A stretch of 55,430 nucleotides of DNA from Alphaproteobacteria bacterium (GTDB lineage Bacteria; Pseudomonadota; Alphaproteobacteria; Rs-D84). The position numbers and the translations under genes were made by a program. Below the pieces are notes generated by a model that saw only the letters and a program-made list of their open reading frames with translations, ran no database searches and was not told where the DNA came from. Location: assembly GCA_009783855.1 (NCBI GenBank), contig WRCO01000003.1, forward strand, positions 1 to 55,430, written 5' to 3'. This document shows, piece by piece, positions 45,986-48,072 of this stretch (positions within the stretch are counted from its first letter, which is position 1; each line of letters opens with the position of its first letter).

Positions 45986-48037
45986 ATGAAACACGCAGAT
46001 TTATTTATAAAAACCGAACACGCCGCGCTTATCAAACAGCTTGCCGAATGGGATGCGGCGTATCATGCGGACGCCGCGCCGCTTGTGGACGACGCGACAT
46101 ATGACGCGGCAAAGGCACGCGCGCGGGCGTTGGAATCCGAATATGTGGGCTTGCCCACCGTAGCCTTGGCGAAGGTGGGCGCCGCGGTATCAAAAGACTT
46201 CAAGACATTCCGGCACAGCATTCCGATGATTTCGATTCAGGACGTCTTTTCGGAAGCATCCGTCGCCGATTGGCTGAGACGCATCCGGAACGACGAAATC
46301 TGGGTAGAGCCGAAAATCGACGGACTGTCGTTTTCGGCGCGGTACGAAGACGGCGTTCTGGTCCGCGCGCTTACCCGCGGCGACGGCACGACGGGCGAAG
46401 ATATTACGGAAAACATAAAAACAATCGCGGATATACCACAGGTGCTGAATTCGCCTTGCGCCTTGCGCCTTGCGCCTTCCGTCTTGGAAATCCGCGGCGA
46501 GGTTTATCTGTCCCGCGCGGATTTTTTGGCGCTGAACACGCGGGCGGAACAATCCGGCGGCAAAGTGTTCGCAAATCCTCGCAACGCCGCGGCGGGCAGT
46601 CTGCGCCAACTTGATTCAAGCGTCACCGCATCGCGCAACCTTCGCGCGTTCGCATATACGTACGGCGAAGCATCGGACCGCGATTGGAAAACGCAAAGCG
46701 AATTTTTTGACCGTCTTGAATCGTGGGGATTTCATACTACGCGCAAATGGTGCCGAATGTGCCATTCGATTGAAGAAATCCAAGCATTCCACAAACATAT
46801 CGAAAACATCCGTTCCGAAATCCCGTTCGACATAGACGGCATGGTGTGCAAAGTCAATGACATAGCGGTCCAGGAGAAACTTGGCTCTACCGCGCAAAGC
46901 CCAAGATGGAAAGTCGCGTACAAATTCCCCGCCGCGCGCGCAATTACGCATATCAAAAGCATAACGATACAGGTCGGGCGCACAGGAGTGCTTACCCCGG
47001 TCGCAGAGCTTGAACCGATTAACATCGGCGGCGTTGTCGTACAGCGCGCGACGCTTCATAACGCGGATGAAATAGAGCGCAAGAATTTTCGCGTCGGCGA
47101 CAAAGTCGTCGTACAGCGCGCGGGCGACGTTATTCCGCAAGTCGTGGAATCGCTTGAACACAGCGCCCACAGCGAACCGTATAATTTTCCGACCGCGTGC
47201 CCGGTCTGCGGCGGCACTGTTGCGCAGGATTCCGGAAAAGTGGCGCGGCGTTGTATCAATACTTTGTCCTGTCCCGCGATGATTGCATCTGAATTGGTAC
47301 ATTTCGCATCGCGCAAAGGGTTTGATATCGAAGGCCTTGGCGAAAAACAGATTGAAAAATTCGTCGAACTTGGCTGGCTTAAAACACCCGCGGACATCTG
47401 GACATTAATCTTGGCTCGTGGCGAAACCATAAGACGGATGGAGGGTTTTGGAGACCGGTCGGTTGCGAATCTTGACGCGGCGATAAAATTGCGAAGCACG
47501 ATAGACCTTCACAGGCTTTTGTTCGCGATTGGAATTCCAGAGGTTGGCGACGCCACCGCAAAGATATTGGCGCGCGAATTCGGGTCGATTGAAAACCTTC
47601 GCGCCGCGGATGCGCCGCGCCTTGTAAAGCTTGACGGCATTGGCGAAATCATGGCGAACGAGATTACAAAATTTTTCGCAGACGAACATACGAAGCGCGC
47701 TTTGGACGAATTGTTGACGCATCTGACGATAATCAACCCGCCGCCCCTTGCGCCTCATGCCTTACGCTTTGCGAACAAAAAAATCGTTCTTACCGGCACG
47801 CTTTCCAAATACACCCGCGAACAGGCGGCGGAAATCCTTGAAAACCTTGGCGCAAAGGTTCAAGGAAGCGTAAGCGCGAAAACAGACATATTAATCGCTG
47901 GCGCGGACGCCGGTTCAAAACTTGCCACTGCGGAAAAACTTGGCGTGACGGTGTGGGACGAGGAAGAGTTCGAAAAACAACTAACAACTGTAAAAAGCAA
48001 AAACAAATATAGCCGTGAGCGAAGCGAACTCAAATAG
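45986..48037 (+). CDS. ligA: NAD-dependent DNA ligase
   Basis: [29 protein letters not shown], Zn finger, BRCT. Confidence 0.97.
46153..46180 (+). repeat. REP-like palindrome inside ligA
   Basis: GCCCACC-GTAGCCTTGGCGAA-GGTGGGC, same family as the intergenic copies. Confidence 0.75.
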
Positions 48038-48072
48038 TTGTTAGCTGTCAGTTTTTATGCTATAATATCCGC

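Follow-up and report, generated by a model that had tools for sequence, protein, structure and literature searches.

Introduction

Coding DNA is generally regarded as being largely closed to heptamer microsatellites, 7 not being a multiple of 3. Heptamers are the commonest long simple-sequence repeats (SSRs), and slippage has been proposed as their source (Mrazek 2007, as summarized in PMC4679880 and PMC4692102). The TAACTGA repeats of Beggiatoaceae lie beside start and stop codons and occasionally extend over the termini of open reading frames (ORFs) (PMC4679880); the GGGAATC heptamer repeats of Xanthomonas and Nostoc likewise lie beside start and stop codons (PMC4692102). Palindromic repeats, for their part, have been described inside genes: intragenic repetitive extragenic palindromes (REPs) were published for several phyla, with a bias to replication and repair genes and with one example in the DNA ligase of Opitutus terrae (PMC3733652), and Rickettsia palindromic elements (RPEs) are the classic in-frame case (PMC10969869). 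Here we analyze a stretch of 55,430 nucleotides (the window) of an alphaproteobacterium of the Rs-D84 lineage (contig WRCO01000003.1, assembly GCA_009783855.1), in which ligA, the gene for the NAD-dependent DNA ligase, carries both a REP-like palindromic element and heptamer arrays without loss of frame. Slippage filtered for reading frame is in our judgment the best explanation and a probable one, combined with a mobile palindrome of REP-like type; surface loops would tolerate the products of both.

The ligA Gene and Its Repeats

All sequence data used in this work are metagenome assemblies. Orthologous DNA was compared for nine loci (L001 to L003 and L245 to L250), and the protein was compared with a set of 120 LigA orthologues. 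The features of the gene, in window coordinates, are as follows.

45962..45985, + strand: heptamer array in the ligA 5' leader (ACGGACC ACGGATA ACGGATA ACG), abutting the start codon, read from the sequence
45986..48037, + strand: ligA, NAD-dependent DNA ligase, 683 amino acids, a single ORF with intact frame
46149..46180, + strand: 32-nt GC-rich palindromic (REP-like) element, GCTT + GCCCACC GTA GCC TT GGC GAA GGTGGGC, coding for 11 residues in frame
46452..46486, + strand: heptamer array at site 1 (CGCCTTG x3, CGCCTTC, CGTCTTG); Tandem Repeats Finder (TRF) period 7, 5.0 copies, 89% matches
47745..47772, + strand: decayed heptamer array at site 2 (CCCCTTG CGCCTCA TGCCTTA CGCTTTG, from 47744), with homologous arrays in relatives
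47978..47989, + strand: what remains of a heptamer array at the 3' end (C AACTAAC AACT; CAACTAACAACT), coding for QLTT
47990..48034, + strand: C-terminal extension, residues 669-683 (15 amino acids), whose DNA is intergenic in relatives
48036..48047, + strand: inverted copy of the heptamer remnant (AGTTGTTAGCTG), overlapping the TAG stop (48035-48037)

The preliminary description of this DNA, made from the sequence alone, had reported three repeat types in a ligA gene that keeps its frame: a 28-mer coding for 10 residues, (GCCTTGC)x3-4 at about 46453-46480, a similar tract at about 47745-47772, and a tail bracketed by heptamers. Each of these sequences is present and the frame is intact, but the repeats really belong to two classes rather than three, one palindromic element and heptamer arrays, the latter falling into two unit families, CGCCTTG and AACTAAC. 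In the 5' leader, TRF delimits the array to 45969-45985 (period 7, 2.4 copies, 100% matches).

By all sequence signs, ligA is a functional-looking, full-length ligase gene. Five domains score above the Pfam cut-off (PF01653, PF03120, PF03119, PF12826, and PF00533), and the domain order is complete, from Ia through the adenylation domain (KxDG), OB, the Cys4 zinc finger, and the helix-hairpin-helix (HhH) region to BRCT. The Escherichia coli enzyme (2OWO) aligns to residues 19-664 with an E-value of 6.5e-161; in the orthologue alignment K110 of the motif EPKIDG and the four cysteines are invariant, and all catalytic and nearly invariant residues are kept intact. The nearest proteins are 76% identical, 73% identical, and less, and come from metagenome-assembled genomes (MAGs) labelled Alphaproteobacteria or "Rickettsiales bacterium"; the window DNA itself is present in termite-gut metagenome runs.

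Because the window comes from a metagenome and the 28-mer is a repeat that collapses assembly graphs in Logan contigs, we considered that the repeats might be an artefact of mis-assembly, or that a native LigA might merely look repetitive by chance. The identical 683-residue protein is encoded on two other assemblies, hence on three independent ones, and contigs run across each of the features with 0 differences; on either side the frame is uninterrupted, independent MAGs hold orthologous arrays, and shuffled sequences yield no such arrays. The three assemblies and the orthologous arrays of other MAGs thus leave this explanation with a negligible probability.

The Palindromic Element Replaces a Conserved Loop

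The 28-mer core of the element, GCCCACCGTAGCCTTGGCGAAGGTGGGC, lies at 46153-46180 and codes in frame for residues L56-G65. It is single copy in the window, even when up to 3 mismatches are allowed. Its predicted fold consists of a 7-bp stem, a 3x3 internal loop of G.A type, a short GC stem, and a small loop, and by direct reading the element is open in five of the six reading frames. The GTGGGC found on both sides in ligA belongs to the element's own stem and is not a target-site duplication.

In the protein, the element-coded residues stand in place of the conserved PEL loop and leave its length unchanged: the loop between EY and VGA counts 10 residues in the window LigA and 8-13 in the orthologues, one of which (P0001) reads EY-PELAAGDLAK-VGA. 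The motif xYP(E/T/G)L occupies this position in nearly all other members of the 120-protein set, and the element-coded 10-residue peptide is found in none of the 120. At the DNA level, the 3' 18 nt of the element (TTGGCGAAGGTGGGCGCC) are identical to L001 at 17 of 18 positions, and the 5' 18 nt differ at 9. A net insertion, as implied by the earlier reading of the 28-mer as an invading insert, was rejected, since the orthologues span a range of loop lengths that includes that of the window, and L001 has the 3' arm too.

The absence of any gain in length, and the 3' arm already present in L001, lead us to infer a length-neutral, conversion-like overwrite. An element of a family spread over many environmental bacteria would have overwritten the loop connecting domain Ia to the nucleotidyltransferase (NTase) domain, probably through a short conversion-like patch from another copy, for which native LAKVGA codons that by chance resembled the 3' arm could have served as the seed. 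Two other candidates were discarded. Quasi-palindrome template switching, considered for the 5' arm, predicts TTC GCC and not the GTA GCC that is present, and also leaves the identity to a widespread consensus unexplained. A CRISPR repeat is at odds with one copy per contig and many copies within ORFs.

Copies of the Element in Other Genomes and Proteins

In termite-gut runs, contig depth rises from about 8 to 99 exactly across 46148-46182. One run (X1) contains at least 10 contigs with copies of the element, which carry 2-3 mismatches, lie on both strands, and have unrelated flanks. When public metagenomes were scanned for the degenerate pattern GCCCACCNNNGCCNNGGCNNNGGTGGGC, at least 119 loci were recovered, and among the matches listed the exact 28-mer or its reverse complement accounts for 39 of 124 metagenome copies. 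From 97 distinct oriented copies we derived a consensus of 32 nt, GCtT-GCCCACC-GtA-GCC-TT-GGC-GAA-GGTGGGC, beyond which nothing is conserved and with which the ligA copy agrees, GCTT included.

Many of the metagenome copies are located within long ORFs with a high GC content at third codon positions. Five such ORFs code for genuine proteins, in which the element lies within a domain or between two. A protein of the PSD family carries it in the same reading frame as ligA, and further in-frame hosts are a Ser/Thr kinase domain (Pkinase), the Fer4_18 domain of FixG, and the Peptidase_S13 domain of PBP4. Compared with solved homologues, the PBP4 copy is a 9-residue insertion, and the kinase copy lies within a 24-residue insertion of the activation loop. 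These in-frame copies within real proteins demonstrate that the 28-mer is a dispersed palindrome able to reside in frame in proteins, and the part of the preliminary description that likened it to RPEs, as a palindrome in frame in unrelated proteins, is borne out. The fifth of these ORFs is a SecD-SecF fusion, with the 28-mer placed precisely where the two parts meet (L128, about 4079-4106), and it could possibly have joined two genes in one frame there.

Hairpins of similar design are found between genes of the window.

52217..52353, + strand: three intergenic hairpins in tandem 3' of tRNA-Gly, built like the ligA element (7-bp stem, GNA..GAA internal loop, GC stem)
5063-5095, - strand: further intergenic hairpin with the architecture of the ligA element
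5127-5140: partial copy of CCGTAGCCTTGGCG

The tandem hairpins start at 52217, 52278, and 52320, directly 3' of the tRNA-Gly gene, and have a GAA..GAA internal loop and a short GC stem; the third, GCCCGCCGAAGCCCAAAGGGCGAAGGCCGGGC, is kept 3' of a tRNA gene in L002 (3264-3297, within a region spanning 3264-3340). Some window hairpins match the ligA element in loop sequence as well as in architecture, and only hairpins with the common loop sequence were accepted as family members. The regular expression stem7-GNA-stem-loop-stem-GNA-stem7 proved unusable for family counts, as shuffled sequences (2-9 matches) match it as often as the window does. Rfam models at the gathering threshold recovered only 3 tRNAs from the whole window, and at E-values up to 10 nothing relevant on the two hairpin regions. 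A full-text literature search with the 28-mer, its sub-strings, and the encoded peptides returned no paper, and a search of a plasmid collection with the element returned no real copy.

Two side observations belong here. Positions 1-6000 of the window are low in GC (0.33-0.44 vs. 0.50-0.56 elsewhere) and hold a gene with a Bro-N domain, a DEAD-box helicase-like gene, and small ACT/NUDIX genes, with an ABC match also in a scan of 8 ORFs; probably, this region is an island of foreign or prophage origin. The palindromes of a second family, about 41 nt long, have the form CCCCCCACCG-[5-bp hairpin]-CGACTCCCCCC-A-GGGGGGG and occur twice in the ligA gene of one relative (L246, 1483-1524 and 1690-1730) and once in that of another (L002, 10532-10572); their inner hairpin shows compensatory changes and they code for ...STPP(K/R)GG.

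Heptamer Arrays at Two Internal Sites of ligA

Site 1 codes for S156-L167, the loop directly before the motif EIRGEV. At the same codons, L001 carries TGCCTCA x2 and CGCCTCA x2, and the region is 5-7 residues longer in the LigA proteins of the window and L001 than in most orthologues; 119 of the 120 orthologues do not share the site-1 peptide. Site 2, which from 47745 reads CCCTTGC GCCTCAT GCCTTAC GCTTTGC, codes for P587-A596 in the linker between HhH and BRCT, gives no extra length relative to typical orthologues, and alone is too decayed to be detected by TRF. At the orthologous position, the relatives carry the following arrays.

L001, site 2: (CGCCTCA)x3 + CGCTTTG; TRF x3.4, 100% match
L248, site 2: (CGCATCA)x4.3, 100% match
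L249, site 2: related decayed array
L245, site 2: ACCAATC x4.0, unrelated unit
L246, site 2: AATCTCC x3.9, unrelated unit
L250, site 2: AAATCAG x4.3, unrelated unit

The closest orthologue (76% identical) thus carries arrays at both internal sites, with the unit CGCCTCA, and in TRF the in-gene arrays of L001, L248, L245, and L250 match their units at 91-100%. Because the orthologous position of L001 is a 100%-match array, site 2 of the window is a real array that has decayed. The LigA proteins of the window, L001, L248, and L249 are 63-76% identical, and the related site-2 arrays of these four lineages argue for one old array in which the unit changed throughout the copies of each lineage, by concerted evolution. 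Outside site 2, one more array is found within the ligA gene of L248 and one within that of L246; that of L248 (1331-1362), its third, is (AATCAGC)x4.6 with 100% match and codes for ISNQQSAISN within the HhH region. Conversely, 22 kb around ligA in L003 is free of heptamer arrays of at least 3 copies, and the LigA of this locus (P0002) lacks all the insert peptides, so that the orthologue alignment upholds the expectation that these peptides are lineage restricted.

The arrays of sites 1 and 2 could also be independent, parallel expansions by three units in each lineage, from a native slippage-prone seed such as Ala-Pro codons (GCGCCTT). The arrays of the window and L001 have 4 units each, the least that an expansion of one unit can give in frame; the last unit coincides in part with native codons (AP-SVLE vs. 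APRVLE or VPHILE in relatives); and unrelated units did arise independently at site 2 in L245, L246, and L250. Set against this are the related site-2 units of the window, L001, L248, and L249 (CGCCTTG, CGCCTCA, and CGCATCA) in proteins that are only 63-76% identical, and the terminal unit CGCTTTG, identical in the window and L001, which favors one old array. We consider parallel expansion a rather doubtful, if serious, competitor.

The C-Terminal Tail

The tail, initially described as bracketed by heptamers, comprises residues 665-683; it starts in CAACTAACAACT and ends at the inverted copy AGTTGTTAGCTG, the reverse complement of which matches the former at 11 of 12 bases. The inverted copy is followed by a T-run and then by the TATAAT box of the next gene. 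In L001 the array goes on (ACTAACC AACTGAC AACTATC AACTAA) and provides the stop codon, and beyond QLTT the tail is found in none of the 120 orthologues. The 3' array, a source of the stop codon in the sister lineage, has decayed in the window, so that translation continues for 15 codons to the TAG at the inverted copy. The stem of the tail is paired in the predicted RNA fold, which is not better than that of shuffled sequences (z=-0.6); nor is the fold of the site-1 RNA (z=-0.7).

Period-7 Arrays across the Window and Its Relatives

Heptamer arrays are not confined to ligA. Of the 38 TRF rows of the window, 10 have period 7, as have 6 of the 9 of L002, and perfect period-7 arrays of at least 3 copies number 2 in the window and 0 in 30 shuffles. 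When arrays of at least 4 copies with periods 6-12 are counted, those of period 7 number 3 in the window, 4 in L002, 2 in L001, 1 in L245, and 0 in shuffles; the sole other array is one of period 6 in L247, and L003 has none. Most arrays of the window and L002 adjoin stop or start codons, as do those at 14594, 26353, 28830, 29213, 35216, 45969, and 51948 of the window. An AACTAAC x4.4 array, for example, directly follows the stop of another gene (28830-28860). On the coding strand, all in-gene units (9/9) are stop-free, and stops occur in 6/8 of the boundary units. Two arrays of the window are translated in genes other than ligA.

38067..38093, + strand: heptamer array TGCCTTR x3.9, coding for the signal peptide of the LptE lipoprotein (MKKLLCLMTCALCLTACGW); TRF, Pfam LptE
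29213..29235, - strand: heptamer array AACAGCT (gene strand), in which a class II tRNA synthetase gene has its final residues and its stop codon (ELTANS*); TRF, Pfam

The product of the latter gene has the Pfam domains tRNA-synt_2b and HGTP_anticodon and is of glycyl type by sequence. In L002 the LptE signal peptide (1056-1090) is coded by (TCTATGC)x5.1, a unit unrelated to the TGCCTTG of the window, and the end of L28 is coded by a heptamer array. Arrays at 51948-51984 of the window (GGTGGCT type) and 18046-18094 of L002 (ATAGGTA x7) begin exactly at the stop of the orthologous gene, and the former recurs in inverted orientation about 100 nt downstream, at 52060-52092. Near-perfect palindromes, TTGTTGTC(C/T)ACTATAGT(G/A)GACAAC and TTGTCCTTACTACTATAAGGGACAA, adjoin intergenic heptamer arrays (window positions of about 14551-14572, 52013-52036, and 10232-10256) and may be operator or promoter elements. 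In a scan of genome contigs, (CGCCTTG)x3 turned up at more than 119 loci, in highly diverse bacteria and archaea from many phyla, including at least 12 contigs of a Methanobacteriota MAG (VGTL01), and some genomes hold arrays of at least 18 units.

This distribution raises the question of a dedicated, site-directed mechanism, in which units of 7 nt, of whatever sequence is local, would be added at the boundaries of genes or the ends of transcription units, possibly by an enzyme, the ligA arrays being by-products. The almost strict period of 7 with many unrelated units, the arrays that begin exactly at stop codons or abut start codons, the conservation of orthologous boundary positions with unrelated units, and the frequency of inverted pairs all speak for it, as does the similar placement of the published TAACTGA repeats, the mechanism of which is not known (PMC4679880). 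No candidate enzyme was identified, and a heptamer excess in many unrelated bacteria (PMC4679880, PMC4692102), like the presence of (CGCCTTG)x3 across diverse prokaryotes, fits a general property of polymerases. Altogether, such a mechanism seems to us unlikely.

Position of the Inserts in the Predicted Structure

An AlphaFold (AF2) model of LigA was built with 27 sequences and has a mean predicted local distance difference test (pLDDT) score of 79. The score falls below 50 at residues 63-71, right after the palindrome-coded segment, and at residues 672-683 of the tail. Site 1 forms a coil between strands of the NTase domain, before EIRGEV (mean of 75 over the 10-residue block), and site 2 lies in the HhH-BRCT linker (block means of 71-74). 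When mapped on the structure, the inserts fall in coil, linker, or low-pLDDT regions, and in this model the repeat sites appear to be permissive places.

The position of the inserts also bears on the idea that they are selected functional modules, the palindrome acting as an mRNA hairpin or protein-binding site and the heptamers as adaptive linkers or interaction motifs. The exact conservation of the palindrome sequence across unrelated bacteria would agree with a function, as would the clusters that hairpins of this design form, in two genomes, 3' of tRNA genes, the reported bias of REPs to replication and repair genes (PMC3733652), and a linker site repeatedly struck by arrays. Arguing in the opposite direction, the site peptides are unrelated between lineages, which have the DNA periodicity alone in common, the site-2 array of the window is decaying, the predicted folds are not significantly better than those of shuffles, no Rfam family was matched, and the insert regions have low or moderate pLDDT. 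On balance, selected modules are an improbable explanation.

Origin of the Repeats

We favor the view that two independent processes met in ligA: a lineage-wide slippage of heptamers, and a REP-like palindrome that spreads or converts and is tolerated in frame. The heptamer tracts are most likely arrays of microsatellite type, born by slippage, and not mobile palindromes. The clade has a strong, period-7-specific tendency to form short tandem arrays, likely by replication slippage or stuttering. In an essential gene, the frame would be preserved by three-unit changes alone (21 nt, or 7 codons), and only stop-free units would survive. This double filter would lead to in-gene arrays of about 4 units and to peptides with a period of 7 residues, presumably neutral. 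The places where they have persisted are a surface loop that precedes motif III, the linker between HhH and BRCT, and the C-terminus. Ongoing contraction and expansion would homogenize the unit within a lineage, and this turnover could explain why orthologous arrays differ in every copy between lineages.

Several points weigh against this explanation. To our knowledge, no transposase or REP-associated tyrosine transposase (RAYT) has been assigned to the element, and none was found here, the 8 ORFs of the low-GC island having been scanned. The element is without the terminal GTAG/CGTC tag of classified REPs, and it leaves the length of ligA unchanged, unlike its copies in other proteins. As for the heptamers, slippage by one unit is a frameshift in an essential gene, so that steps of three units or rapid compensation have to be assumed. 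No array copy-number variants were seen among assembler contigs of the older runs, which cannot establish their absence. Finally, the unrelated units at orthologous boundary sites are not easily explained by the turnover of one ancestral array, and hint at a site-directed process.

A bolder proposal can be made, to which we give little credence as a whole: the clade may have a period-7-specific way of writing repeats that goes beyond slippage, time and again installing arrays of about 4 units at identical positions, at gene ends, in signal peptides, and in enzyme loops, including those of essential genes, where they would be long homogenized; and the GCCCACC...GGTGGGC hairpin may be an undescribed cross-phylum mobile element of 32 nt that inserts in frame or converts look-alike sequences. 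If this were true, both processes together would make a natural generator of new peptide segments in conserved enzymes.

Whatever their origin, the arrays of ligA are a natural data set for the entry and evolution of non-triplet repeats in genes, three-unit steps, concerted evolution, and the stop-free filter, and they inform on which LigA surfaces bear 7-20 extra residues. The palindrome, with no Rfam match and no paper found, may merit formal description and a search for a mobilizing enzyme. In practice, such repeats are also annotation noise in MAGs, as odd peptides and false frameshifts.

Comparison with Known Repeat Systems

The ligA element resembles the REPs of PMC3733652 in being a GC-rich imperfect palindrome of 20-40 nt that also occurs in frame in ORFs; these REPs are mostly intergenic and 3' of genes, and their single units code for about 10 amino acids, as the element does. 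It differs from GTAG- and CGTC-tagged REPs in having no terminal tag, GTAG being found in the internal loop and GCTT alone being conserved at one flank; its core is exact across very different environments, and it replaces residues rather than adding them. With RPEs, as summarized in PMC10969869 and PMC3733652, it shares in-frame residence in unrelated genes, the formation of peptide segments without loss of the protein, and alphaproteobacterial hosts. The RPE-1 type measures about 100-150 bp and is confined to Rickettsia, and is set apart by this length from the widespread 32-nt element. The latter is also unlike miniature inverted-repeat transposable elements (50-500 bp, with terminal inverted repeats and target-site duplication) in being a single hairpin of 32 nt. 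Because the terminal GTAG/CGTC tag is absent and it is far shorter than RPE-1, the element is described here as REP-like and is not filed as a member of either the REPs or the RPEs.

The heptamer arrays of the window share with known heptamer SSRs (cyanobacterial short tandemly repeated repetitive sequences, GGGAATC, and TAACTGA) an excess of period 7, intergenic locations near start and stop codons, some inverted pairs, peptides with a period of 7 residues when translated, and an occasional overlap with ORF ends. The units AACTAAC and AACTGAC and the TAACTGATAACT stretch (about 14613-14624) resemble TAACTGA. The window clade differs in that many unrelated units coexist rather than one or few families, that two internal sites of an essential enzyme, as well as a signal peptide, hold arrays, whereas most cases published within ORFs concern protein termini or hypothetical proteins, and that in-gene arrays have remained at orthologous positions through about 25-37% protein divergence, their units changing in concert.

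Intragenic REPs, one of them in a DNA ligase, RPEs, and heptamer repeats have thus all been described, and the ligA case is not a new category; the protein-creating repeat process that the preliminary description proposed by analogy with RPEs is supported, with the qualifications that the heptamers are most likely of slippage type and that the process is not new in kind. What is unusual here is the presence of both repeat classes in one essential gene, the internal position of non-triplet arrays, the concerted change of their units, and an identical palindrome core across environments. Judged from its sequence, ligA suggests that repeats akin to junk can supply a vital enzyme with new stretches of peptide and leave its frame unbroken.

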